A stretch of DNA of 64,000 nucleotides from a virus (lineage: Duplodnaviria > Heunggongvirae > Uroviricota > Caudoviricetes): the IMG/VR virus record IMGVR_UViG_2645727948_000011. One strand, written 5' to 3'. The position numbers were made by a program, and so were the translations under genes. Positions 1 to 31,153 of the stretch are shown piece by piece. The notes beneath the pieces are model-generated. The model worked only from the letters and a program-made list of their open reading frames with translations. It was not told where the DNA came from and searched no databases. Position 1 is the stretch's first letter. Each line of letters starts with the position of its first letter.

Positions 1-13
1 TGGTTTAGGAGAA
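1..13 (-). other. Partial invertase crossover site (cix/mix-like), inverted relative to the six cassette sites; remainder lies upstream of the window
   Basis: Reverse complement of 1-13 is TTCTCCTAAACCA, matching the left half of the 26-bp sites found in each cassette. Confidence 0.4.
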
Positions 14-463
14 GGCTCGGCGCTGCCCGTTGGTGTACCTGTTCCATGGCCATCAGCCACACCTCCAACGGGGTGGCTGAAATGCAATGGTGCAGCATTT
101 TCTTCTGAAAAGTACCCAAATCTGGCAAAGGTTTACCCAACGTTAAAATTACCTGATTTACGCGGTGAGTTTATCCGTGGTTGGGATGATGGGCGAGGTG
201 TGGATGCGGGAAGGGTCATCTTAAGCATACAGGGGTGGTTAACAGGAAGTCATTATCATAATATTCGGTCATGGGACGCGTGGGATAACACGGTATTGGT
301 GCCAAATGACAGAGGGGGGGATAGTCTGTTGTCGACAGATAACGCCGTCCGAGAAGGAGCGATTAATGGTAAATTTACCAGTCAATACAGAACGGAGTTA
401 TCTGGGGGGAATGAAACCCGCCCACGTAACATTGCCTTCAATTATATTGTGAGAGCAGCATAA
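1..463 (+). CDS. S: Tail-fibre protein, 3' portion (5' end cut by window edge); the expressed variable tip
   Basis: Frame open from base 2 to stop at 461-463; contains collar-like motif LPDLRGEFIRGWDDGRG; ends ETRPRNIAFNYIVRAA like the six silent cassettes; followed by a tfa-like gene. Confidence 0.75.
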   Translation, partial: GLGEGSALPVGVPVPWPSATPPTGWLKCNGAAFSSEKYPNLAKVYPTLKLPDLRGEFIRGWDDGRGVDAGRVILSIQGWLTGSHYHNIRSWDAWDNTVLVPNDRGGDSLLSTDNAVREGAINGKFTSQYRTELSGGNETRPRNIAFNYIVRAA

Positions 464-1074
464 TGGATAATGCGATATTAAATAGCGAACTTATAGCCAT
501 ACAGGCAGGTAACATTATCGTTTATAACTATGATGGTGGTAATCGGGAATATATTTCTGCATCAACTGAATATCTTGCTGTTGGCGTTGGTATTCCGGCA
601 AATTCTTGTTTGGATGCTCCAGGCTCACATAAAGCAGGTTATGCGATTCTCCGTTCAGAGGATTTAAGTTCATGGGAGTATGTGCCAGATCATCGTGGCG
701 AAACTGTCTATAGCATTGACACTGGGAATCCCGAAGAAATCACGGTGTTGGGTGACTATCCGGAAAATACAACCACTATCGCCCCGCTAACACCATACGA
801 CAAATGGGATGGAGAGAAATGGGTGGTTGATACTGAGGCTCAACATAGTGCAGCTGTAGAGGCAGCAGAAACAAAACGTCAGTCATTGATTGATACTGCG
901 ATGGATTCCATTAGTCTGATTCAGTTGAAATTACGGGCTGGACGGAAGTTGACGCAGGCAGAAACCACGCAGCTTAACTCCGTGCTAGATTATATAGACG
1001 AGCTGAACGCGATGGATTTAACCACGGCACCAGATCTCAACTGGCCTGAAAAACAACTTTCTACAGCCAGTTGA
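463..1074 (+). CDS. U: Tail-fibre assembly chaperone (Tfa/U-like)
   Basis: 203-aa ORF immediately after the tail-fibre stop; position and size typical of Mu/P1 U-type chaperones. Confidence 0.65.
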   Translation: MDNAILNSELIAIQAGNIIVYNYDGGNREYISASTEYLAVGVGIPANSCLDAPGSHKAGYAILRSEDLSSWEYVPDHRGETVYSIDTGNPEEITVLGDYPENTTTIAPLTPYDKWDGEKWVVDTEAQHSAAVEAAETKRQSLIDTAMDSISLIQLKLRAGRKLTQAETTQLNSVLDYIDELNAMDLTTAPDLNWPEKQLSTAS

Positions 1075-1079
1075 TATAA

Positions 1080-1577
1080 TTAATCCGCCCTCACAATATA
1101 ATTAAATGCAATATTACGAGGGCGGGTTTCTAAGCCAGCAGTACCTAAATTAGCTACGGACTGTTTATATGTTTTAAAAGTTCCATAATTAGGGGCTGGC
1201 AATCCTGCATCGCTTGTGTTCCCCCATCTGATAACTCCCGTATTACCACTAGTAGCCCATGCCTCGTCAAAGTAGAAATTAATTGAGCTGTCAGTTGCTA
1301 CGGTTGATTTTGACGGTAATCCGTGAGCATGATCCTCCGTTGCATATCCTTGCTCGCTTAAAATAGAGCGACCTGGATCAATCCCGCGCCCGTCATCCCA
1401 GCCACGAATGAACTCACCACGTAAATCAGGCAATTTATTTGTCGGGTAAGCCTTTGCCAGTTCCGGGTATTCTTCAGCAGAAAAAGCCGCACCGTTGCAT
1501 TTCAGCCAGCCTGTTGGCGGAGTGGCTGAAGGCCACGGAACAGGGACACCAACAGGTAATGCAGAGCCTTCTCCCAA
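1080..1577 (-). CDS. Silent alternative tail-fibre C-terminal cassette 1 (promoterless)
   Basis: Starts with conserved block GLGEGSALPVGVPVPWP...KLPDLRGEFIRGWDDGRG, variable middle, conserved end RPRNIAFNYIVRA. Confidence 0.65.
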   Translation of the reverse strand: MGEGSALPVGVPVPWPSATPPTGWLKCNGAAFSAEEYPELAKAYPTNKLPDLRGEFIRGWDDGRGIDPGRSILSEQGYATEDHAHGLPSKSTVATDSSINFYFDEAWATSGNTGVIRWGNTSDAGLPAPNYGTFKTYKQSVANLGTAGLETRPRNIAFNYIVRAD

Positions 1578-1594
1578 ACCAACGTTTTTATGCC
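1569..1594. other. Putative crossover site TTCTCCCAAACCAACGTTTTTATGCC
   Basis: Near-dyad core AAACC-AA-CGTTT resembling Gin/Cin/Hin-type sites; same 26-mer recurs at each cassette 5' end. Confidence 0.5.
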
Positions 1595-2064
1595 GCCCTT
1601 ACGATGTAATTAAATGCGATATTTCGTGGACGGGTTTCACTCCCGCCAGTATTACCAATACTCCCTCGAGAATGAAGTGTCGGTGATGGAATCAAATTCC
1701 CTCCTGTATTTGAGGCATCAAGCCCCCGTCCTTGTGTGTATGTTTTTTTGAAAATTGTCGCCAGCTCCCATTCATCTTTTGTGTCGTAACCATCATTGGC
1801 TACAACAATATGTCGGTGCTTTTCCAGCATTCCTGTCTGAATGCTCAATAAAGCACGTCCAGCATCCACCCCGCGCCCATCATCCCAGCCGCGAATAAAT
1901 TCTCCCCGTAAATCCGGTAATTTATTGGTGGGATAAGCCTTTGCCAGATTTGGGTACTTTTCAGAAGAAAATGCTGCACCATTGCATTTCAACCACCCCG
2001 TTGGAGGTGTGGCTGAGGGCCACGGAACAGGTACGCCAACAGGCAATGCAGAGCCTTCCCCCAA
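1588..2064 (-). CDS. Silent alternative tail-fibre C-terminal cassette 2
   Basis: Same conserved N-block and C-terminal RPRNIAFNYIVRAA, distinct variable middle. Confidence 0.65.
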   Translation of the reverse strand: MGEGSALPVGVPVPWPSATPPTGWLKCNGAAFSSEKYPNLAKAYPTNKLPDLRGEFIRGWDDGRGVDAGRALLSIQTGMLEKHRHIVVANDGYDTKDEWELATIFKKTYTQGRGLDASNTGGNLIPSPTLHSRGSIGNTGGSETRPRNIAFNYIVRAA

Positions 2065-2081
2065 ACCAACGTTTTTATGCC
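2056..2081. other. Putative crossover site TTCCCCCAAACCAACGTTTTTATGCC
   Basis: Repeat of the 26-bp site. Confidence 0.5.
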
Positions 2082-2536
2082 GCCCTTACGATATAATTAA
2101 AGGCAATATTACGAGGACGGTTTTCATTAGCTGTTGGCACGACACGAGAGGCGTCGAATCCAAGGTCATCGGTTTTGCCTATATCAGTTGTGTTATTCGG
2201 CATTCTCGCAGATCGTGTTCCTGCATCATAAAAAGCCCCTCTGATTGCATCAAAAGACATACCAATCCCGCCATCTGCGAACCCCTCAATATTTCTTATT
2301 GCATCCCCCTGTGAAGATAATAATTGTCGCCCGGCATCCACACCACGTCCGTCATCCCAGCCACGAATAAATTCACCGCGTAAATCCGGCAATTTATTAG
2401 TAGGGTAAGCCTTTGCCAGATTTGGGTACTTTTCAGAAGAAAATGCTGCTCCGTTACATTTCAGCCACCCCGTTGGCGGTGTTTCTAAGGGCCACGGAAC
2501 GGGCACGCCAACGGGCAATGCTGAGCCTTCCCCCAA
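2075..2536 (-). CDS. Silent alternative tail-fibre C-terminal cassette 3
   Basis: Same architecture as cassettes 1-2. Confidence 0.65.
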   Translation of the reverse strand: MGEGSALPVGVPVPWPLETPPTGWLKCNGAAFSSEKYPNLAKAYPTNKLPDLRGEFIRGWDDGRGVDAGRQLLSSQGDAIRNIEGFADGGIGMSFDAIRGAFYDAGTRSARMPNNTTDIGKTDDLGFDASRVVPTANENRPRNIAFNYIVRAA

Positions 2537-2553
2537 ACCAACGTTTTTATGCC
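2528..2553. other. Putative crossover site
   Basis: TTCCCCCAAACCAACGTTTTTATGCC. Confidence 0.5.
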
Positions 2554-3014
2554 GCCCTTACGATATAATTAAACGCAATATTACGGGGGCGGGTTTCAGA
2601 TGCTGTACGAACTGAGCGAGAGGCGTCGAATGTCCAGTTATAAGAGCCATAACCCTCAATAATTTCCGTTTCCTTTAGGCCTGTAGATAATACTTGACCA
2701 TGTTGACTAAATGGCCCTGAACTAAGTACATCTCTAAAAAGCTGAGTACGCCCGAAAGAACCAACAATATTCTGAATTGCATCATTCTGTGCAGATAATA
2801 AATTACGGCCAGAGTCAATCCCCCGCCCGTCATCCCAGCCGCGAATAAATTCGCCCCGTAGATCCGGCAATTTATTAGTGGGGTAAACCTTTGCCAGTTT
2901 GGGATACATTTCAGAAGAAAATGCTGCTCCGTTACATTTTAGCCAGCCCGTTGGTGGTGTTTCTAAGGGCCACGGAACGGGCACACCAACAGGCAGTGCA
3001 GAGCCTTCCCCCAA
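2547..3014 (-). CDS. Silent alternative tail-fibre C-terminal cassette 4
   Basis: Same architecture. Confidence 0.65.
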   Translation of the reverse strand: MGEGSALPVGVPVPWPLETPPTGWLKCNGAAFSSEMYPKLAKVYPTNKLPDLRGEFIRGWDDGRGIDSGRNLLSAQNDAIQNIVGSFGRTQLFRDVLSSGPFSQHGQVLSTGLKETEIIEGYGSYNWTFDASRSVRTASETRPRNIAFNYIVRAA

Positions 3015-3031
3015 ACCAACGTTTTTATGCC
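3006..3031. other. Putative crossover site
   Basis: TTCCCCCAAACCAACGTTTTTATGCC. Confidence 0.5.
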
Positions 3032-3453
3032 GCCCTTACGATGTAATTAAATGCGATATTTCGCGGCCTGACAGCAACAAAATTTATACCATCACCTACA
3101 GAGTTACTGGTGAAATTAAATCGTGAAAATCCTGGCTGATTTCCGACGATGCCATCATGAAAATTAATTGCGTGCCCCGCACCATCGCCTATATTTCCGG
3201 CACGATGAGAAAAGTTTGTAGCCTCTTGGCTGCTTAATAATGCTCGCCCATTGTCCACACCTCGTCCATCATCCCAACCTCGAATAAATTCGCCCCGTAG
3301 ATCCGGCAATTTATTAGTGGGGTAAACCTTTGCCAGATTTGGGTACTTTTCAGAAGAAAATGCTGCACCATTGCATTTCAGCCACCCCGTTGGTGGTGTG
3401 GCTGAGGGCCATGGAACAGGTACACCAACGGGCAGCGCCGAGCCTTCCCCTAA
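3025..3453 (-). CDS. Silent alternative tail-fibre C-terminal cassette 5 (shorter variable region)
   Basis: Conserved N-block is in frame from about 3453 (the ORF track starts at an internal TTG at 3309 only because no start codon lies upstream); ends RPRNIAFNYIVRAA. Confidence 0.55.
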   Translation of the reverse strand, partial: LGEGSALPVGVPVPWPSATPPTGWLKCNGAAFSSEKYPNLAKVYPTNKLPDLRGEFIRGWDDGRGVDNGRALLSSQEATNFSHRAGNIGDGAGHAINFHDGIVGNQPGFSRFNFTSNSVGDGINFVAVRPRNIAFNYIVRAA

Positions 3454-3470
3454 ACCAACGTTTTCATGCT
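3445..3470. other. Putative crossover site (variant TTCCCCTAAACCAACGTTTTCATGCT)
   Basis: Same core AAACCAACGTTT. Confidence 0.45.
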
Positions 3471-3967
3471 GCCCTTACGATGTAATTAAAAGCAACGTTG
3501 CGGGGGCGCATTGATATCCATGCCCCGGTAAAATTATCCTCTGCCGTCCTTTGAGTGCCTGTTATGGAGTTATCTGATGATGCTGGAACATAATCGCTAT
3601 TATCTCCTGCTTTAGGATTAGCAGGGTTTCCAACAGTTATAACAGAATCAGCAGTAGCATAAGCGATACCTACTTTGACATTAGTAGTCAGATCGACACC
3701 GTAATAATCCTGCAAAGCTGTACGAATAAATGTTGCAGTCTGACCACTTAGCAATGAACGCCCTGTATCAATCCCTCTCGAATCATCCCAACCACGGATA
3801 AACTCACCGCGTAAATCAGGTAATTTTAACGTTGGGTAAACCTTTGCCAGATTTGGGTACTTTTCAGAAGAAAATGCTGCTCCGTTACATTTCAGCCACC
3901 CCGTTGGCGGTGTGGCTGAGGGCCATGGAACAGGTACACCAACAGGCAGTGCAGAGCCTTCCCCCAA
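3464..3967 (-). CDS. Silent alternative tail-fibre C-terminal cassette 6 (outermost, next to invertase)
   Basis: Same architecture; ends RPRNVAFNYIVRAA. Confidence 0.65.
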   Translation of the reverse strand: MGEGSALPVGVPVPWPSATPPTGWLKCNGAAFSSEKYPNLAKVYPTLKLPDLRGEFIRGWDDSRGIDTGRSLLSGQTATFIRTALQDYYGVDLTTNVKVGIAYATADSVITVGNPANPKAGDNSDYVPASSDNSITGTQRTAEDNFTGAWISMRPRNVAFNYIVRAA

Positions 3968-3984
3968 ACCAACGTTTTAGTCTT
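3959..3984. other. Putative outer crossover site TTCCCCCAAACCAACGTTTTAGTCTT
   Basis: Last copy of the site, about 55 bp upstream of the invertase start. Confidence 0.5.
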
Positions 3985-4038
3985 AATCCCTACCTATACC
4001 AACGATGTATTTTTAACTAAACAAAGAGGTTGTTTTTC

Positions 4039-4611
4039 ATGCAAATTGGCTACATTCGTGTGTCAACAAATGACCAAAACACAGATTTACAAAGAAATGC
4101 ACTGAACTGCGCAGGATGTGAACTGATTTTTGAAGATAAAATAAGCGGAACAAAGTCAGCCAGACCAGGCTTGAAAAAGCTGCTCAGAACGTTATCAGAA
4201 GGAGATACGCTGGTTGTCTGGAAGCTGGATAGGCTTGGCAGAAGTATGAAACACCTTATCACGCTTATAGAGGAGTTGCGGGAAAAAGGTGTTAATTTCC
4301 GTAGTCTGACAGACAGTATTGACACATCAACACCCATGGGGCGTTTCTTTTTTCACGTCATGGGGGCTTTAGCAGAAATGGAACGTGAATTAATTGTTGA
4401 GAGAACACTGGCCGGACTGGCAGCTGCACGCGAACAGGGACGCATTGGCGGACGTCGCCCGAAGTTGACAAAAGAACAACATGAGCAAATAGCGAGGTTG
4501 ATCGAAAATGGCTACAGCAGGAAACAGTTGGCAATTATTTACGATATCGGTGTATCGACGATTTATCGTTATCATCCTGTAGAGAAGCGCCAAACTCAAT
4601 CTGAGCTGTAA
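4039..4611 (+). CDS. cin: Serine DNA invertase (Gin/Cin/Hin/Min family)
   Basis: MQIGYIRVSTNDQNTDLQRN... catalytic-serine resolvase N-domain, C-terminal HTH; ATG at 4039 preceded by AGAGG (the ORF track TTG at 4030 is less likely). Confidence 0.9.
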   Translation: MQIGYIRVSTNDQNTDLQRNALNCAGCELIFEDKISGTKSARPGLKKLLRTLSEGDTLVVWKLDRLGRSMKHLITLIEELREKGVNFRSLTDSIDTSTPMGRFFFHVMGALAEMERELIVERTLAGLAAAREQGRIGGRRPKLTKEQHEQIARLIENGYSRKQLAIIYDIGVSTIYRYHPVEKRQTQSEL

Positions 4612-5046
4612 TTCTAATGCCGCGTCGGTGTAATTTATCTTGATAGAATAGGTACATTTATCGCGCGGCACATCAATTCGATGTATCTAGCGCCTGCTGA
4701 CCGCTAATGAAAACTGTCCTCGAAATGTTGTCCCTAGCCCGAGACTAGGGTATCACCTCTGGAAAGCATACGCAGAACCTTTTTTAACCCAGGGTGCCCA
4801 GCCTTTTTGCTGCTCGCCTTATTCGCAAAAATTAGCTCACATCCTGCGCTTTCAAGTGCTTTTCACTGCATAGCTGTGTTTTGTTCATTTGTCTATATGC
4901 GTACATAGCCTATTAGCATATTTTCTGCCCACTATCGTTATTTATTGCAAGCTACAGGTTTTAATTAACAAAACCAGTGTGTGTGGAAATCACAAAGTGC
5001 ATACCGTTCTCAGATGTTGTTCAACTTACTGTTGTATAGGTAAAAA

Positions 5047-5310: not shown

Positions 5311-5384
5311 GTCTCTTATGCAACATAACCGGTTGAGAAGTTACTTTGCATACCATTACCTCCTGACAACGTAGGAGGGAACTT

Positions 5385-5714
5385 GTGCTTGACACACAGG
5401 AATTAGCTCCAGTTGCTATTGCGCTCCTGCTTTCAGTAATTGGTGGGATAGGCACGTTCCTGATGGATGTCCGAGACGGTCGCCAGTCTGGCAATTTGTT
5501 GGGATTGGTTACGGAGATCTTTGTTGCAGTGACAGCTGGCGCGGTGGCGTACCTATTGGGGCAACACGAGGGCTGGGAGTTATCAATTACGTACTTAATG
5601 GTAACGATAGCCAGCAATAACGGTCATGAGGTGATTTCAGGGATGAAACGAGTGAATATCGATAGCATTCTGAATGTTCTTACAAGTTTGGTGAAAAAGG
5701 GAGGCGGGAAATGA
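5385..5714 (+). CDS. lydA: Holin-like membrane protein
   Basis: GTG start after AGGAGGG; two or three hydrophobic helices; first gene of the darA-type operon as in P1. Confidence 0.55.
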   Translation: MLDTQELAPVAIALLLSVIGGIGTFLMDVRDGRQSGNLLGLVTEIFVAVTAGAVAYLLGQHEGWELSITYLMVTIASNNGHEVISGMKRVNIDSILNVLTSLVKKGGGK

Positions 5715-6744: not shown

Positions 6745-8664
6745 ATGGAACAGTTCAATATCAATAAAGGGGTGACGATCAAGCCTGGGCTTGACGTGCT
6801 TCCCCCGCCAGTGACTGATGATGAATATCGCGCATTAATGGCCGGTGAGGACCGCTATCTGATGACGGAATCCAACACCCTGGAGGAAATCGAGGCTACG
6901 TTCTTCTATGACACGCCGATCCACTGGTGTGCTACGGATTTACTGGAGGCGATTAGTTCTACTCGTTTGCAGTTACACCGGACCATGCAGGCATTTGTCC
7001 GGGCATTGAACCAGAAGCTGAATGGTACCGGAATCTCTGCGGGGAGTGATAAAACGGGGGATGTGGCCCAGAGCGGCGCGCGCGCGATCGGCGGCGCTGA
7101 AATTGGCCGGGCACGTAACGTTAACGGGCTGCCGGTCTTGCCAGCCATTATTCCGCTCAGTGATGGTCAGACTATCAGCATTCTGTTTCATAGCCCGACA
7201 GCGGAAAACCGGATCACCAATAGCGATACGCTGGTTGCTTTCCAGTTCTTACTGAATAAAAAAGACGTTACTCACACCGTTGCTCCGATGAGTGGACGTG
7301 ATATGACGCTGGCGCAGGTCACCATGAAACTTGCCAACCTTGCAGAGAAAAACTCGGCAAAATTCCAGCGTGCGCAGAAGAAGAAAAAAGCCCTTGTTGA
7401 TGAAATAACCCAACTACAGGCTGACAGTGACCAGAAAGAGGATGCCATGAGCGACCTCGCGGATCAGGTGGCAGCGGTAGAAGGGCAGAAGGCAGATCTG
7501 GAGCAGAAAATTAACGCTGTTGCATCGGAAGCGGATTCTCTTTATGAAGAGAATGAGCGTTTGCAGACGGAGATTGATCAGCTCAATCGCACAGGTGGGC
7601 GCGATACCATTGATCCAGCGGGGATGACTGGTGGGCACTCGCGCGCGCTGACGGATCGCCTTGCCAGTATCAAAAATCGTATGCATATGAACGGGGAAGT
7701 GACGCTCAGTAATGGAGCATCAATGAAGCAATTCATTGAGGACGGCGAAGGGTATATCCAGTTAACCGATCCGGATGGCAGCGTATACATGATCAAGGCT
7801 AAATCCATACAGGGTGTGGACATGGCAGATGCGATCGGCAAGCTGTTTAAAGCCTATAAAGCGGGTAATGTATCGGAATACCTGGTCCAACCAGAAGAAC
7901 ATAAACCGGAAAACGTCGAACCTGAACCAGCGGAGGATACCGGTAGCTCTTCGCCTGAACCAGAAGTCTCTGTAGGTGCATATCGATATGCCCTGCAAAT
8001 GCGTCCGGCGGCCCCTGGCGCAATACCTGAAGGTAACAAAGCAATTCTGCCGCGCCCTGATGAAGGTGACCCGTATTATGAATATGCACGCTACGGCATT
8101 GCTACTTACGATACCCCGCTTTCTGATCAGCAAATGAGTGAGTACGACCTGAAGTTATTGCCTCGCGAGGATTCTTTCGACTTCCTGGCGAAGACACTTA
8201 CTAATGGTCCGTTTGGCAAATATGCACAAAAAGCTCTGGAGCTGGCCACCAGCTCACCAGACGAGTTCCGCGTAATGCTGAAAACTCAGTTTCAAAAAAC
8301 TTTCCCCAATATTGCGTTTCCTGGGGGCGCTGGCACCGAGAAAATGGTGCAGAGCATGATCAATGCATTGCAGGCCGAAGTCGGTGAGATTACTCAGCCA
8401 GAACCGGCCCCGGCACAGCCTGATGAAACGGTTAGCGAAGCAGATGCAGAGGCTAATAAAGCCATTGAATATCTCAATAACGTGATGGATATACAAAGCA
8501 CTGACATGGCGGAGATCCGTAACGCCCGGGGCAATGTCCGGGAAGCGATTGCAGCCCTTCAGGCTGCCGGACGTTTTGAGGAAAACGAAGAGCTGGTTAA
8601 CGGCGCAGCTCGCCACCTGGCTGATCTGTTGGTAGCAATCCAGAAAGCGGGGGTAGCGGCATGA
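6745..8664 (+). CDS. darA: DarA-like internal head / antirestriction protein
   Basis: 639-aa ORF in the P1 darA position. Confidence 0.55.
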   Translation: MEQFNINKGVTIKPGLDVLPPPVTDDEYRALMAGEDRYLMTESNTLEEIEATFFYDTPIHWCATDLLEAISSTRLQLHRTMQAFVRALNQKLNGTGISAGSDKTGDVAQSGARAIGGAEIGRARNVNGLPVLPAIIPLSDGQTISILFHSPTAENRITNSDTLVAFQFLLNKKDVTHTVAPMSGRDMTLAQVTMKLANLAEKNSAKFQRAQKKKKALVDEITQLQADSDQKEDAMSDLADQVAAVEGQKADLEQKINAVASEADSLYEENERLQTEIDQLNRTGGRDTIDPAGMTGGHSRALTDRLASIKNRMHMNGEVTLSNGASMKQFIEDGEGYIQLTDPDGSVYMIKAKSIQGVDMADAIGKLFKAYKAGNVSEYLVQPEEHKPENVEPEPAEDTGSSSPEPEVSVGAYRYALQMRPAAPGAIPEGNKAILPRPDEGDPYYEYARYGIATYDTPLSDQQMSEYDLKLLPREDSFDFLAKTLTNGPFGKYAQKALELATSSPDEFRVMLKTQFQKTFPNIAFPGGAGTEKMVQSMINALQAEVGEITQPEPAPAQPDETVSEADAEANKAIEYLNNVMDIQSTDMAEIRNARGNVREAIAALQAAGRFEENEELVNGAARHLADLLVAIQKAGVAA

Positions 8665-9038: not shown

Positions 9039-12026
9039 ATGAGCTTAAGCGATCAGGTGGTAATGGCCACCAGCATAGAAACGCTGATCGAGCTGCTAAA
9101 GAACCTGCCCGATTATGGGCGGGTTTCGTATGTGGTGACAGCGAAGGGAGACGAGGTAAAAACAGCGTTTGATATCGTCGATGCCTCAGTTCTTTTGGTA
9201 TCCAATACTCTGGATGGGAAAATTAATCCAGACTATCCCCAGGAACTTCAGCCGCGCGACCGGACCCGCGCATCCAGCCTTCTTCAGGTTAACCAGATAT
9301 CCAAAGATTTGCGGCCTGCTCAGCTTACTGATTCCGGTTTATCCAGCCATGGTGCGCCGATAATTGGTGAGGACAATGCCGTTGAGTCAGGTAATGGACG
9401 GACCATGGGGATCATCAAAGCCTATCAGGACGGCAATGCGGATCGGTATCGTGAGTACCTGATTGAACATGCGACCGAATTCGGCATACGACCTGAAAAG
9501 GTTGAATCAATGACGGCTCCGGTACTGGTGCGCCGCCGGTTAACTAAGGTTGATCGCGTTCAGTTTGCCAAGGACTCAAATATTTCTGATCTTCAGGAAA
9601 TGGCAGCCAGTGAAAAGGCTTTTGTTGATGCCGACAGCATAACACCGGCGATGATGGCGTTGTTTAACCCGTCAGAAAGCGGAGATCTGCTTAGCCGCAG
9701 TAATGACGCGTTTATTCGCGGATTTATGACGCAAGTTGGTGCCACACAGGCGGCTGGCCTTGTAACTGAAGATGGGCGACCAACACGGCAACTTGTAGAC
9801 CGTATACAAAACGCGATCTTTGCCAAGGCATATAAGGATGCGCGCCTGGTAAGGATGGTTGCAGAAGAACCTGATCCGGACATGCGTAATGTTCTGACGG
9901 CGCTTAATGCGGCAGCCAATGATTTTGTCCAGATGCAGGCTTTATCAGGAGAAGCGCACAAGCAGGCTGTGACAACTATTGTTGATGGCATTGAGACAGC
10001 GGATAGCCTCGATAAAAAGGCGCTGGCGGCATTGAAAGATGCGGTAGACCTGGTAAGGCAATCGAAGGAGTCAGGCCAACATATTACCGATGTTATTGCT
10101 CAGGGGGATATGTTCAGCGAAACAGCCCCGGAAGTGAAAGCTCTCGCGTTGTTCATCGTCGCGAATAACCGTAGCGCGAAGCGTATGGCCACCGCCTTTA
10201 AATTGATGGCTCAACGTATCAATGATGAGTTACAGCACCAGGGCCAGGCGCTCGGGGATATGTTTGGCGGCGGCGATGTGTCGTTACAGGATATCCTTCG
10301 CCAGGTATCTCAGGAACTGGAAAACGAAGGTATGCAAGGGATATCCGGCGGTCTTTTCGAGTCAGCTTCCGGCGGTAGTTACAACGGTGTTGCTCCATAT
10401 ACCAGCTTGCTATTACATCGGGCATCCGGCATCAAAGACATTATTCATCTGATCAGGCTGCTATCCCGCACCGATCCCCAGGATGAGCAGCTTGTACAAG
10501 TGCTTGCGCATTTTGTCCGAATGCCTGTTGCCGACGTAAAAAAATGGTGCCGATTATTCGGTATCAGCAATTCGTTACTTCGCGGATTGTTAAATTACGC
10601 ATCCTCCCTTGGGCGCGACGGCTTTGATGAGATAGCGCAGGCGATAAAAAACGGAGATATGCCACCAGCTATTGACTGGTTTTCCATTCGCCCAACCAGG
10701 GTGAAAGCATTCCTTAGCGCGGCGCAATCAGCATCACCATTGGCAGAAATGGTTCAGAGGTTGTCGCTCATATTCACAGACCATACCGCGTTGGGTGATC
10801 TGACTCTGGACGAGATGAAAGAAGCCTCCATTCAGTGGGCCGATCAACAAAATGAGGTTAACTCTGACTTCTTGCCAGCATTCAGGAAGGCCGTTAGTAA
10901 AGCTGATGATGCCCGTGGAATTCTGAGGGCATTTAAGGCATTGCAAAGTCAGGTTAATAAACATGTCGGTGATATCGATGGGGTAACGGCGGAAGGCAGG
11001 GATATCCTTAAAGAGCACGGCATAACGCCAGAGTTTATTGATGAGATCAGGACTGATATGCAGCGTGAGGTCGTATCGTCCCTGCAAATCGTAGCCAGAG
11101 CGTTGGCGGATGCTAATCCGAAGAGTGCGGCCATTGTTAACCGGGTTATTGGTGATATTGAAGCATCGGAGGGCATGGGGGCGCTGAAACTCTTCCTTTC
11201 GCGAGCGTTTAATCCTAACGGCAATATTCTCCCTGGCATTATTGGTGAGGCTAAAAAGTATGTCAGTGAAGAAGAACTTTCGCAGCTTGACCAACTACTT
11301 AAGCGATTCTCATATAACCCGCAGACACGCTGGCAAATGAATCAGCGAAGTATGGGTTCGGTCCACGAGAAAGTGTTATCTGCCATGAACAGTGCGATCG
11401 CCAACTCATCCGTATCTGAAGAAAAAGCTCTTGAGTGGGCCGACTCTTTTATCACGGAAGAAGTGGAAGAAGCCCGCGCTGGACAGAATGGTGGGATAGA
11501 CCTGCGCAAGGAACTTGCTGATATTTATCGCCTGACCGGCGGTAAAATTTCGACCTTATCAAAGGTGGTTCACCACCAGGGAAGGGCATATGCAAATCTT
11601 AATGGTGTTGTTGCTGTCAATTTGAACGATGAAAATGCAAGTGCACTGTGGCACGAGCTGGGTCATCATCTTGAGTACAGTAACCCTGGTTTGTTAGAGA
11701 AAGCCCGGTCATTCCTGAAGGCCAATGTTGAAGGGGATAAGCCATCTTTCGTCAATATCGGTGGGCGTGGCAAGCCTGAATGGTGCTTCAGATCTCGATT
11801 GAGTAATATTTATATGGCGAAGGTATACCCGCCAGCCTCAGTAAGTAACACCGGGAAAATTCGGCAGAAATCACCGACTATTTCCAAAACGTCAGCAACG
11901 GAAGTATTCTCTATGGCTCTTCAGTTGTATCATGACAAAGAGGCCGCTGCCGCATCACTGATGAATGGTGACGGATTGCTGGAACTGTTATTAGGTGTGG
12001 CAAAGGAGCTAAATAATGCAGATTAA
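9039..12026 (+). CDS. ddrB: DdrB-like large protein
   Basis: 995-aa ORF downstream of darA. Confidence 0.5.
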   Translation: MSLSDQVVMATSIETLIELLKNLPDYGRVSYVVTAKGDEVKTAFDIVDASVLLVSNTLDGKINPDYPQELQPRDRTRASSLLQVNQISKDLRPAQLTDSGLSSHGAPIIGEDNAVESGNGRTMGIIKAYQDGNADRYREYLIEHATEFGIRPEKVESMTAPVLVRRRLTKVDRVQFAKDSNISDLQEMAASEKAFVDADSITPAMMALFNPSESGDLLSRSNDAFIRGFMTQVGATQAAGLVTEDGRPTRQLVDRIQNAIFAKAYKDARLVRMVAEEPDPDMRNVLTALNAAANDFVQMQALSGEAHKQAVTTIVDGIETADSLDKKALAALKDAVDLVRQSKESGQHITDVIAQGDMFSETAPEVKALALFIVANNRSAKRMATAFKLMAQRINDELQHQGQALGDMFGGGDVSLQDILRQVSQELENEGMQGISGGLFESASGGSYNGVAPYTSLLLHRASGIKDIIHLIRLLSRTDPQDEQLVQVLAHFVRMPVADVKKWCRLFGISNSLLRGLLNYASSLGRDGFDEIAQAIKNGDMPPAIDWFSIRPTRVKAFLSAAQSASPLAEMVQRLSLIFTDHTALGDLTLDEMKEASIQWADQQNEVNSDFLPAFRKAVSKADDARGILRAFKALQSQVNKHVGDIDGVTAEGRDILKEHGITPEFIDEIRTDMQREVVSSLQIVARALADANPKSAAIVNRVIGDIEASEGMGALKLFLSRAFNPNGNILPGIIGEAKKYVSEEELSQLDQLLKRFSYNPQTRWQMNQRSMGSVHEKVLSAMNSAIANSSVSEEKALEWADSFITEEVEEARAGQNGGIDLRKELADIYRLTGGKISTLSKVVHHQGRAYANLNGVVAVNLNDENASALWHELGHHLEYSNPGLLEKARSFLKANVEGDKPSFVNIGGRGKPEWCFRSRLSNIYMAKVYPPASVSNTGKIRQKSPTISKTSATEVFSMALQLYHDKEAAAASLMNGDGLLELLLGVAKELNNAD

Positions 12027-12324
12027 AATCGCAGCGCCATTAGGCGGAGATGCCATTATCGAATTTGATGATAATGAAGAAGTTTCCGGGCGTTTAAGCA
12101 TTATCTCCGGTGACATTACCGAGGACATGATCGCTGAAGCCATAGCTGGGGCAAATCCCAATAGCTATATGGGATTCGTTAACACCCTTGATGCTCCCGC
12201 AAGTGATGTTCTCCGAACGCTGCATCTTTACGCTGGCTGGTTTGTTGATTGGCCAGCAGTAGATGGTGGCGATGAGGACGACGACGATGATTTTGGTGAT
12301 CATGTAGACCAGATCGTATATTGA
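12016..12324 (+). CDS. Hypothetical acidic protein, last gene of the operon
   Basis: ATG overlaps ddrB end, AAGGAG 8 nt upstream; C-terminal Asp/Glu run. Confidence 0.45.
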   Translation: MQIKIAAPLGGDAIIEFDDNEEVSGRLSIISGDITEDMIAEAIAGANPNSYMGFVNTLDAPASDVLRTLHLYAGWFVDWPAVDGGDEDDDDDFGDHVDQIVY

Positions 12325-12326
12325 AG

Positions 12327-12353
12327 AAATCCCGCCAATTGGCGGGATTTTTA
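12327..12353. terminator. Bidirectional intrinsic terminator
   Basis: AAATCCCGCC-AATT-GGCGGGATTTTT perfect hairpin flanked by A and T runs between convergent genes. Confidence 0.8.
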
Positions 12354-12355
12354 CC

Positions 12356-13450
12356 TCACGAGAAACTCTTTTCTGATGTCAGCCAACAGTGCTCGTGCAT
12401 ATCTCTTGGTGGTTTTTCGACAAATGCCTCTTCAGCCACATCCTGCCAGGGGATTTGTTTAGCCCATTCAGCTATAGCGTTATGGTTTGCCGAGAATAAC
12501 GGTATTGTATAGGCCTTCAGCCAGTCTAATGTGCTGGAGTTGTGTTTTTTAGCGTGATGTTTCGCATGGTGTTTGGCGATCACGATCGTAGGCACTACCC
12601 ATTTACTACCGTCAGTCATTGTGAAGTGCATATTACGGGGAACAGATGACTTTTCCATCAACTCCCGAATCCCGGGGAATTTCCCCAAGATCAATCGGCG
12701 ATATTCATCGCTATTGCGCCCACCAAACTCTTTGGCTTTGAATTCAAGATATGCTTCAGAAACGAGAGGTGAATCCTCTGTGTTTAGAGTTATCGCCGTG
12801 AAAAAACCAGCAGGATTGTTTTTACTATGGGCCAACCGGTGATGCGAATCATAAAAGTACCCTTTCTCGCGTTCCGATGGTTTCGACAGCAACAGCAGGC
12901 GCGAGTCATAATTGGTTAAATTGCCAGTTATCACTGCATGAGCGCGATCGCTGATTTCCGCCGAGTTAATAACGATGAAAAGATCGTGCGGTCCAGTAAA
13001 ACCAGCCAGAGACTCTTCGTTATTCAGACAATAGGTTATATAGACGCATCCCCATGTTTCACTGATATGCACCAACCCTTTGTCAGGGTGTATTCTGAAA
13101 TAATTGCCAAGAAAAGGGTGTTTTTGGGTAACTCGCTCCCAATAACGGAACATATAGTCAATTATTGTTTTTCGACTATCGTTAATCGCAGGAGAAACAA
13201 CCACTGTACGGGAGCACGAATACAGTATTGTTTGCAGGATGCTAATCACTGCCACAATAGAGGTTTCCCCAATACCATGTGGTGTGGTGGCAGTGACTTT
13301 GGCTCCGGTGTTCTTTATCGAGTTAATAATTTTTGCTTGATGAGGTGTTAACTCAATATCAAGCAACTCTTTTGCTGCCAGTTCCCAATTGTCTTTATAC
13401 CGTTCTATCAGTGCTAACCAGGCAGATTCATTCTGTATACGATTAATCAC
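12356..13450 (-). CDS. Terminase-large-subunit (PacB) ATPase-domain paralogue with degenerate Walker A and B motifs
   Basis: Collinear similarity to PacB residues about 8-270 in this same window; Walker A GHGTGKS replaced by PHGIGET, Walker B IIDEAS replaced by VINSAE; no nuclease-domain region. Confidence 0.7.
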   Translation of the reverse strand: MINRIQNESAWLALIERYKDNWELAAKELLDIELTPHQAKIINSIKNTGAKVTATTPHGIGETSIVAVISILQTILYSCSRTVVVSPAINDSRKTIIDYMFRYWERVTQKHPFLGNYFRIHPDKGLVHISETWGCVYITYCLNNEESLAGFTGPHDLFIVINSAEISDRAHAVITGNLTNYDSRLLLLSKPSEREKGYFYDSHHRLAHSKNNPAGFFTAITLNTEDSPLVSEAYLEFKAKEFGGRNSDEYRRLILGKFPGIRELMEKSSVPRNMHFTMTDGSKWVVPTIVIAKHHAKHHAKKHNSSTLDWLKAYTIPLFSANHNAIAEWAKQIPWQDVAEEAFVEKPPRDMHEHCWLTSEKSFS

Positions 13451-30887: not shown

Positions 30888-31076
30888 TTTTCACCTCTGA
30901 TTGATTGGTGGTGCTAAGTGCGCTACGCGAAATCTGGAGCACTAACACTGCCAACATTTCGCAGATTTTACGTAGCGCAACCTTGATCAAATGATCAAGT
31001 GATCACTATTTGACCTGATAAGGTATTGAACTGTATGGATTTACAGGTAAATTGATCATGTTCAATAACCCTTAAG

Positions 31077-31110
31077 ATAACTTCGTATAATGTATGCTAT
31101 ACGAAGTTAT
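31077..31110. other. loxP recombination site
   Basis: Exact ATAACTTCGTATA-ATGTATGC-TATACGAAGTTAT. Confidence 0.98.
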
Positions 31111-31153
31111 TAGGTCTGAAGAGGAGTTTACGTCCAGCTGCGCATAAAAATCA

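Follow-up and report, generated by a model that had tools for sequence, protein, structure and literature searches.

Positions 1–4611 of the IMG/VR virus record IMGVR_UViG_2645727948_000011 (Caudoviricetes), analysed as a 64,000-nucleotide stretch that we call the window, contain one expressed and six silent tail-fibre tip cassettes, a single gene for a tail-fibre assembly chaperone (tfa), and a single serine DNA invertase gene (min). The locus is very probably a multiple DNA-inversion system of the p15B Min type carried by a P1-like phage-plasmid. It is a system known in kind, with one cassette more than the p15B type example. An earlier note made from the sequence had read the region as a Min-type, multi-site, invertase-driven swap of the fibre tip, and this reading is supported by the Din-family invertase and crossover sites, the intact cassettes, and the permuted cassette orders among 24 loci.

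The silent cassettes A, D, G, H, E, and B are tightly packed on the minus strand at 1080–3970, and cassette C forms the expressed 3′ end of the tail-fibre gene S on the plus strand (Table 1). The arrangement proposed in the earlier note, six tandem minus-strand cassettes and an expressed plus-strand 3′ end, was recovered in full, with all seven cassettes mapped. All seven frames are open (143–168 codons), and the frameshifts within the variable middles that would mark decayed copies were not found. Truncation of the cassette at 3025–3456 was considered and rejected, as no internal stop is present; this cassette appears short in a list of open reading frames because it has TTA in place of TTG as the site codon, and two of the seven window cassettes have TTA at this position. 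An alignment of the seven gives 72 invariant residues, mostly within the first ~77 and the last ~13 positions, and the middles of ~52–78 amino acids cannot be aligned. The middles are unrelated, as had been claimed, but shorter than the 60–90 amino acids then given. Likewise, a common cassette ending had been described, and the last ~13 positions are indeed conserved, but one cassette ends RPRNVAFNYIVRAA and not RPRNIAFNYIVRA.

The Pfam Phage Tail Collar domain (Collar, PF07484) was matched in all seven cassettes. In cassette C, residues 6–69 and 131–153 align with opposite ends of the tip structure of T4 gp37 (2xgf), which ends NIAFNYIVRLA. In T4 gp37, as Bartual and co-workers reportedly described in 2010, the chain exits the collar, builds the needle and tip that bind the receptor, and runs back to end in the collar. 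The alignment to gp37 indicates that the conserved–variable–conserved layout of the cassettes is one structural domain with a swappable insert. Each cassette would consist of a gp37-like collar, made of the N-terminal block and the C-terminal strand, and a variable receptor-binding insert.

A pattern search located six complete 26-bp crossover sites, all in a single orientation and of the form TTCCCCCAAACC-AA-CGTTTTTATGCC. They are imperfectly symmetric 12-2-12 sites of the Din type, found at every cassette boundary, with the central dinucleotide AA in all six, and they fit the Din consensus quoted from Sandmeier 1994 in Table 3 of PMC4134206. The 12-nt core AAACCAACGTTT is confined to these sites across the whole 64 kb. 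One common 26-bp site had been claimed for all cassettes, which holds for the six sites and their one core but not for the 26-mer quoted, since this sequence is exact at only three of the six and the remaining three differ from it at 1, 3, and 5 positions. The last site differs because its outer half is the fixed flank CGTTTTAGTCTT. Each site overlaps two coding ends: its central AA is part of a Val codon at the beginning of one cassette, and its right half contains the stop codon of the cassette next to it.

The window starts with TGGTTTAGGAGAA, which is the inner half of such a site in reverse complement. The inverted site reported earlier at the window edge is therefore present as an inverted half-site at 1–13, but only as a half, as the window starts inside the central dinucleotide. 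The missing half of this seventh site would follow that of the relatives, in which the S-side site reads TTCTTAATTACC-TT-GGTTTGGGGGAA. The partner sites are inverted, with the half-site at 1–13 facing six sites of the opposite orientation and full S-side sites seen in relatives. Across loci, the outer half-sites are constant (GGTAATYAAGAA on the S side and CGTTTTAGTCTT on the min side) and the inner half-sites vary with the cassette, so that homology stops exactly at the central dinucleotide.

The earlier claim of a Din-family serine invertase just outside the last site was confirmed by domain, structural, and pairwise comparisons. The min product has the PF00239 Resolvase domain (E = 2e-51) and PF02796 HTH_7, aligns end to end with the Gin structures 4m6f (E = 4e-92) and 3uj3, and shows 82% identity to e14 PinE and 74% to P1 Cin. 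At the nucleotide level, min is 99.6–100% identical across the P1-type plasmid loci L001–L013. An exact-sequence look-up gave the UniRef names Q05517_ECOLX (DNA-invertase) for min and TFAB_ECOLX for tfa, both of which we take to be p15B entries. Positions 4057–4128, inside the 5′ end of min, align without gaps and with 81% identity to the first 72 nt of the enhancer annotated in P1 cin, and may function as a recombinational enhancer bound by Fis.

A tblastn search of the whole 64-kb window for a second active invertase found none, only a dead stub of an ancestral cin next to min. The stub has an ATG at 4919, a second stop besides the TAG at the catalytic Ser codon, and 94% column identity to P1. 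Inside it lies a second enhancer-like copy (4830–4901), which is 86% identical to the P1 enhancer versus 81% for the copy in min. The P1 record notes homology of this stub region to p15B nt 7147–7408. The stub looks like the scar of a Pin-type module replacing a Cin-type one; Sandmeier and co-workers are said to have proposed such a replacement for p15B in 1992.

Relatives of the locus are abundant: BLAST matched 270 plasmids in PLSDB, and 2,881 of the 5,426 complete E. coli genomes also gave hits. An unbroken copy covering 80% of the query was absent from every record, the pattern that permuted arrays would leave. We fetched 23 related loci and mapped the sites, cassette types, tfa, and invertase in each of these and in the window. 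The core C> tfa> A< is unchanged in all 24 loci. Eight further cassette types (B, D, E, F, G, H, I, and J) all point at tfa from either side, and the order and side of these mobile cassettes differ between records. The arrays span from 2 sites to 10 or more, and types A, B, C, D, I, and J are each fused to the S constant part in some locus.

Rearrangement is also visible within a single strain lineage. Over 6.7 kb of flank, the plasmids of strain 2022N21-074 and of 2022N21-074-17, a derivative of it, share 99.9% identity, and cassette C is preceded by F in the former, by B in the main contig of the latter, and by D in an extra 2.6-kb contig of the derivative’s assembly. These three arrangements in one lineage indicate that shuffling is ongoing. 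In long-read assemblies, invertible fibre segments are known to reveal themselves by spare contigs of this kind (PMC4134206). Two database records, NZ_JBQJRM010000005.1 (2,595 bp; L006) and CP088785.1 (a 2,058-bp ‘plasmid’), hold only the invertible region in an alternative arrangement; they arose as by-products of assembling mixed isomers and were deposited as replicons in their own right.

Other relatives bear on how the arrays grow and travel. At 10989–12456 of locus L009, the cassette pair E-B occurs twice in tandem (A< E< B< E< I<), from which it follows that arrays also grow by unequal crossing-over between direct repeats. Two chromosomal contigs (L016 and L019, 7051–9759) carry C-tfa-A with an identical tfa protein, followed by a 190-aa Resolvase/HTH_7 invertase, behind the P2-type baseplate genes gpW, gpJ, and gpI in prophages; the module thus moves between P1-like and P2-like phages. 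A further locus (L022) holds a decayed copy of the module interrupted by a transposase gene.

The sites left of tfa all point right and those right of tfa all point left. Since only left–right pairs are inverted repeats, the core C-tfa-A lies within every invertible segment and is flipped by each inversion. Exhaustive enumeration from the window arrangement gave 1,440 isomers for seven sites, 240 for six, and 2 for two. Only seven fibre proteins result from the 1,440 isomers, and tfa is in the sense orientation to S in exactly half of them and antisense in all six one-step products of the window isomer. For p15B, Sandmeier, Iida, Arber, and co-workers reportedly described (1990–1992) 240 isomers produced from six sites in a 3.5-kb segment.

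As a mechanism, we propose that Min, probably with host Fis and the enhancer in its own gene, would recombine any pair of 26-bp sites lying in opposite orientation, the strands being exchanged at the central AA/TT dinucleotide within a Val codon of the fibre frame. One site would end the constant part of S and each cassette would carry one at its 5′ end, so that a cassette landing beside the constant part would be expressed and seven tips would be possible. Each cassette’s stop codon lies in the next site, and hence only one tip is made.

The tfa gene is the pivot of all these inversions. Its product is 78% identical to e14 TfaE. A homologue of P1 U was considered and rejected, as no similarity is detectable, and no solved structure matching tfa was found by sequence. 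A tblastn search of the 64-kb window revealed no second tfa, which agrees with the single tfa/U chaperone gene counted in the earlier note. That note had considered the single gene notable here; the count stands, but every array of the family, from those with 2 sites to those with 10, is built around one tfa. This is almost certainly the design of p15B too, as the ~3.97-kb invertible stretch of the window minus one ~0.48-kb cassette leaves 3.5 kb, so that a single tfa fits the p15B size; six cassettes and one 0.61-kb tfa also sum to 3.5 kb. The concern that most new tips would lack an adjacent chaperone gene addresses a real problem, although it needs refinement, because tfa itself flips at every inversion. 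Of 20 P1-like database plasmids, 13 have tfa in the sense orientation relative to S and 7 have it antisense.

How tfa might be expressed when antisense to S was addressed by promoter scans. The tfa ATG overlaps the stop codon of cassette C, and none of the genes outside the segment points leftward into the array. A sigma-70 scan for a promoter of the antisense state returned 7 sites, none of them convincing, where chance alone would give 9. The Lpa late-promoter motif of P1, derived from LPs as AAGTNACTT-N4-TANNNT, had zero matches in 1–4700, and the 54-bp spacer between site 6 and min, read by eye, offered only 3–4 of 6 hexamer matches. Between the convergent tfa and A lies a strong hairpin (1082–1128; −23 kcal/mol, z −3.9 for the plus-strand RNA, and −21.5 kcal/mol, z −2.8 for the minus-strand RNA), formed by the RPR…VRA codons of A; the equivalent codons in two other cassettes gave z-scores of 0.0 and −1.9, equal to or marginally better than shuffled sequence. 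On the strength of this folding prediction, the hairpin could terminate transcripts from either side.

With a collar common to all tips, a single TfaE-type chaperone could serve every one of them. Consistent with chaperone sharing, the TfaE-type chaperone gene follows an A-like cassette in e14 and cassette C here. Tfa proteins are known to cross-complement; the Tfa of lambda, for instance, can stand in for T4 gp38. That the single-tfa design is so abundant is an argument that it works.

The conserved blocks (~230 bp) are 74–86% identical among the window cassettes, and RecA-type homologous recombination between these inverted blocks might make the arrangements, the invertase being incidental. 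In the window and L001–L023, the conserved 5′ block (the first 234 nt of every cassette) is mosaic over its first ~190 nt, with haplotypes common to several cassette types and varying within a type; from ~nt 195 on, each polymorphism goes strictly with cassette type. The repeats are thus also subject to gene conversion or homologous recombination. Cassette B, moreover, carries different half-sites within one strain lineage. We prefer to see the mosaic as slow homogenisation and traffic of cassettes overlying fast site-specific inversion, and consensus polishing of mixed isomers could fake chimeras. Recombination between direct repeats should lose cassettes as readily as inverted ones flip, yet arrays of 7–10 sites persist, canonical Din-type 12-2-12 sites sharing one central dinucleotide mark every cassette boundary, and the invertase is kept nearly unchanged beside the array in L001–L013. 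Sandmeier and co-workers are also said to have established Min-mediated inversion in p15B experimentally in 1990. We consider an incidental invertase quite improbable. Because the blocks are mosaic, their polymorphisms cannot prove the crossover point or separate the invertase from homologous recombination.

That the array is a fossil, with decaying cassettes and a switch no longer operating in this element, appears very improbable. Some database relatives do have frameshifted or truncated cassettes, but many of these are long-read assemblies in which the defects may be sequencing errors. In the window, the seven cassettes, the six visible sites, and the invertase are all intact, exact protein copies of the window cassettes occur on 58 to 978 contigs by exact-sequence look-up, and the relatives are still rearranging. 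Even less credible is the view that the silent cassettes are separate small genes, as the Prokaryotic Genome Annotation Pipeline (PGAP) annotates them in every relative (‘phage tail protein’, TTG start): the TTG lies inside the recombination site with no Shine-Dalgarno sequence upstream, the codon is TTA in two window cassettes, and when a cassette is in the expressed position, its frame extends back across the site and into the constant part of S.

It is unlikely, though less so than the explanations above, that tip and chaperone are coupled, such that no Tfa is made in the antisense half of the isomers and their virions are fibre-defective or dependent on the Tfa of other prophages. The inversions would then act as a two-layer switch that chooses one of seven tips and sets the cis chaperone on or off together with it. 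The flipping of tfa at every inversion, its antisense state in database records, and the absence of both an outside gene reading leftward into the array and a promoter in the scans are compatible with such coupling, and the strong tfa/A hairpin could stop the S transcript there. The single-tfa design is nevertheless the commonest in nature, which argues for a low cost; sequence scans may miss weak or unconventional promoters, tfa has its own ATG at the cassette C stop codon, and Tfa proteins can substitute for one another. If tip and chaperone were coupled, half of the 1,440 isomers would make fibres without co-transcribed Tfa, and the antisense isomers would need an undiscovered internal promoter or the Tfa of other prophages, or else would yield fibre-poor virions; the hairpin would be a two-way terminator insulating both states.

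A p15B-type Min system that swaps fibre tips by site-specific inversion remains the reading we favour, and several points weigh against it. Inversion in this molecule is suggested by the arrangements seen in its relatives, and the mosaic block means that homologous recombination or gene conversion could produce some inversions. With no promoter for the antisense tfa found in the sigma-70 and Lpa scans, the proposal that one chaperone serves all tips is incomplete. The comparison with the p15B min region (X62121) is indirect and draws on UniRef names, notes in the P1 record, and a table in PMC6906374.

Table 1. Features of the inversion locus and adjoining cin stub, in window coordinates.
Feature	Position	Strand	Remarks
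S-proximal site, inner half	1..13	-	TTCTCCTAAACCA on the minus strand; outer half outside the window
Cassette C, expressed 3′ end of tail-fibre gene S	2..463	+	153 codons and stop; Collar domain
tfa, tail-fibre assembly chaperone, 203 aa	463..1074	+	Pfam Caudo_TAP, E = 3e-30; pivot of all inversions
Cassette A, silent	1080..1580	-	Convergent with tfa in all loci; 87% identical to e14 StfE
Strong hairpin, candidate bidirectional terminator	1082..1128	.	Between convergent tfa and A; RPR…VRA codons of A
Crossover site 1	1569..1594	+	TTCTCCCAAACC-AA-CGTTTTTATGCC
Cassette D, silent	1588..2067	-	Open frame, typed against relatives
Crossover site 2	2056..2081	+	Stop codon of next cassette inside right half
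Cassette G, silent	2075..2539	-	Open frame, typed against relatives
Crossover site 3	2528..2553	+	Pattern search
Cassette H, silent	2547..3017	-	Open frame, typed against relatives
Crossover site 4	3006..3031	+	Pattern search
Cassette E, silent	3025..3456	-	Intact; site codon TTA
Crossover site 5	3445..3470	+	TTCCCCTAAACC-AA-CGTTTTCATGCT
Cassette B, silent	3464..3970	-	Open frame, typed against relatives
Crossover site 6, invertase-proximal boundary	3959..3984	+	Outer half CGTTTTAGTCTT fixed in all loci
min, Din-family serine DNA invertase, 190 aa	4039..4611	+	Catalytic Ser9 in YIRVSTNDQ
Presumed Fis recombinational enhancer	4057..4128	+	Inside 5′ end of min
Dead stub of ancestral cin	4743..4925	-	Promoter and ~58 codons; TAG at catalytic Ser codon

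The genes flanking the locus encode two holins, LydB, and DarA (the lydA/B and darA neighbours). A loxP site (ATAACTTCGTATA-ATGTATGC-TATACGAAGTTAT) is present at 31075–31112; the late-promoter search picked it up as a pair of weak matches facing each other. Together, these genes and the loxP site place the window in a P1-like phage-plasmid. The only exact match to the P1 Lpa late promoter in the window (AAGTTACTT-N4-TACCAT) is located at 5338–5356 on the plus strand, just upstream of a 109-aa holin gene at 5385, and corresponds in position to LPdar of P1.

In Enterobacteriaceae, resistance genes are often carried by P1-like phage-plasmids, whose host range this fibre tip determines. Most of the natural P1-like plasmids sampled have a Min-type stack of 2 to 10 or more tips and not the textbook two-state C segment of P1, and recent comparative papers list the region simply as “variable” (PMC9603915; PMC6906374). 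Recurrent errors follow the locus through databases, in which silent cassettes are called genes, fibre genes look frameshifted, and isomers are deposited as 2-kb “plasmids”. For engineering, the family offers a ready-made library of about ten interchangeable tips with a common collar and presumably one chaperone. The residual interest of the locus lies in the pivoting chaperone gene, a single tfa that would have to serve all states, and in annotation, assembly, and host-range prediction.

Among known systems, the R64 shufflon (Rci, sfx, and pilV) likewise uses overlapping invertible segments to choose one C-terminal end for a single adhesin gene. However, Rci is a tyrosine recombinase, the sfx sites are asymmetric, and the target is the adhesin of a conjugative pilus. 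The recombinase here belongs to the serine Resolvase family, so an R64-type shufflon was rejected, and the label ‘shufflon-like’ used in the earlier note is apt for the multi-segment choice of tips but is only an analogy, because a serine invertase and not an Rci-type tyrosine recombinase is involved. The C segment of P1 with Cin and the G segment of Mu with Gin share the enzyme family, the logic of the 26-bp sites, the swap of fibre tips, and a homologous enhancer with the locus. Both are two-state systems with mirror-image Sv-U / Sv′-U′ pairs, in which a chaperone gene always follows the expressed tip; moreover, P1 U is unrelated to this tfa, and cin faces the P1 segment, whereas min faces away from the array. 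A P1 two-state C segment was also rejected, given the seven sites, the single tfa unrelated to U, and the survival of cin only as a dead stub.

The components are closer to those of the Pin system of e14 in E. coli K-12, which has the same type of site (TTCTCCCAAACCAACGTTT… and TTCTCCCAAACCAAGGTTT…) and related proteins (82% identity for PinE, 78% for TfaE, and 87% for StfE to cassette A). The e14 system differs in having two sites and two chaperone genes (tfaP and tfaE), one behind each tip; its TfaE-type gene comes after the A-like cassette, whereas here it comes after C and A has none. The two-site C-tfa-A-invertase module of P2-like prophages (L016 and L019) has an identical tfa protein, the same C and A cassettes, and a Resolvase/HTH_7 invertase of equal length (190 aa), but represents the core alone without stacked extra cassettes and sits in another phage backbone. 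The same half-sites occur in Phi2 of EC958, for which inversion was seen in PacBio reads (PMC4134206).

In the window, more than two sites form overlapping invertible segments in the 3′ region of one fibre gene, and a recombinase and cassettes of the e14 Pin type sit in a P1-type backbone. Both features are those of p15B Min, which the locus also resembles in its P1-related backbone, its Pin-like rather than Cin-like invertase, the UniRef names of min and tfa, the direction of min, which reads away from the array with the enhancer-like segment in its 5′ end, and the dead cin stub adjoining min, as the P1 record notes for p15B. The topology reproduces the 240 isomers reported for p15B when six sites are used, and one tfa with six cassettes of ~0.48 kb fits the 3.5 kb. 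On the other hand, the locus described here has seven sites and cassettes over ~4.0 kb and 1,440 isomers, compared with six over 3.5 kb and 240 isomers in p15B.

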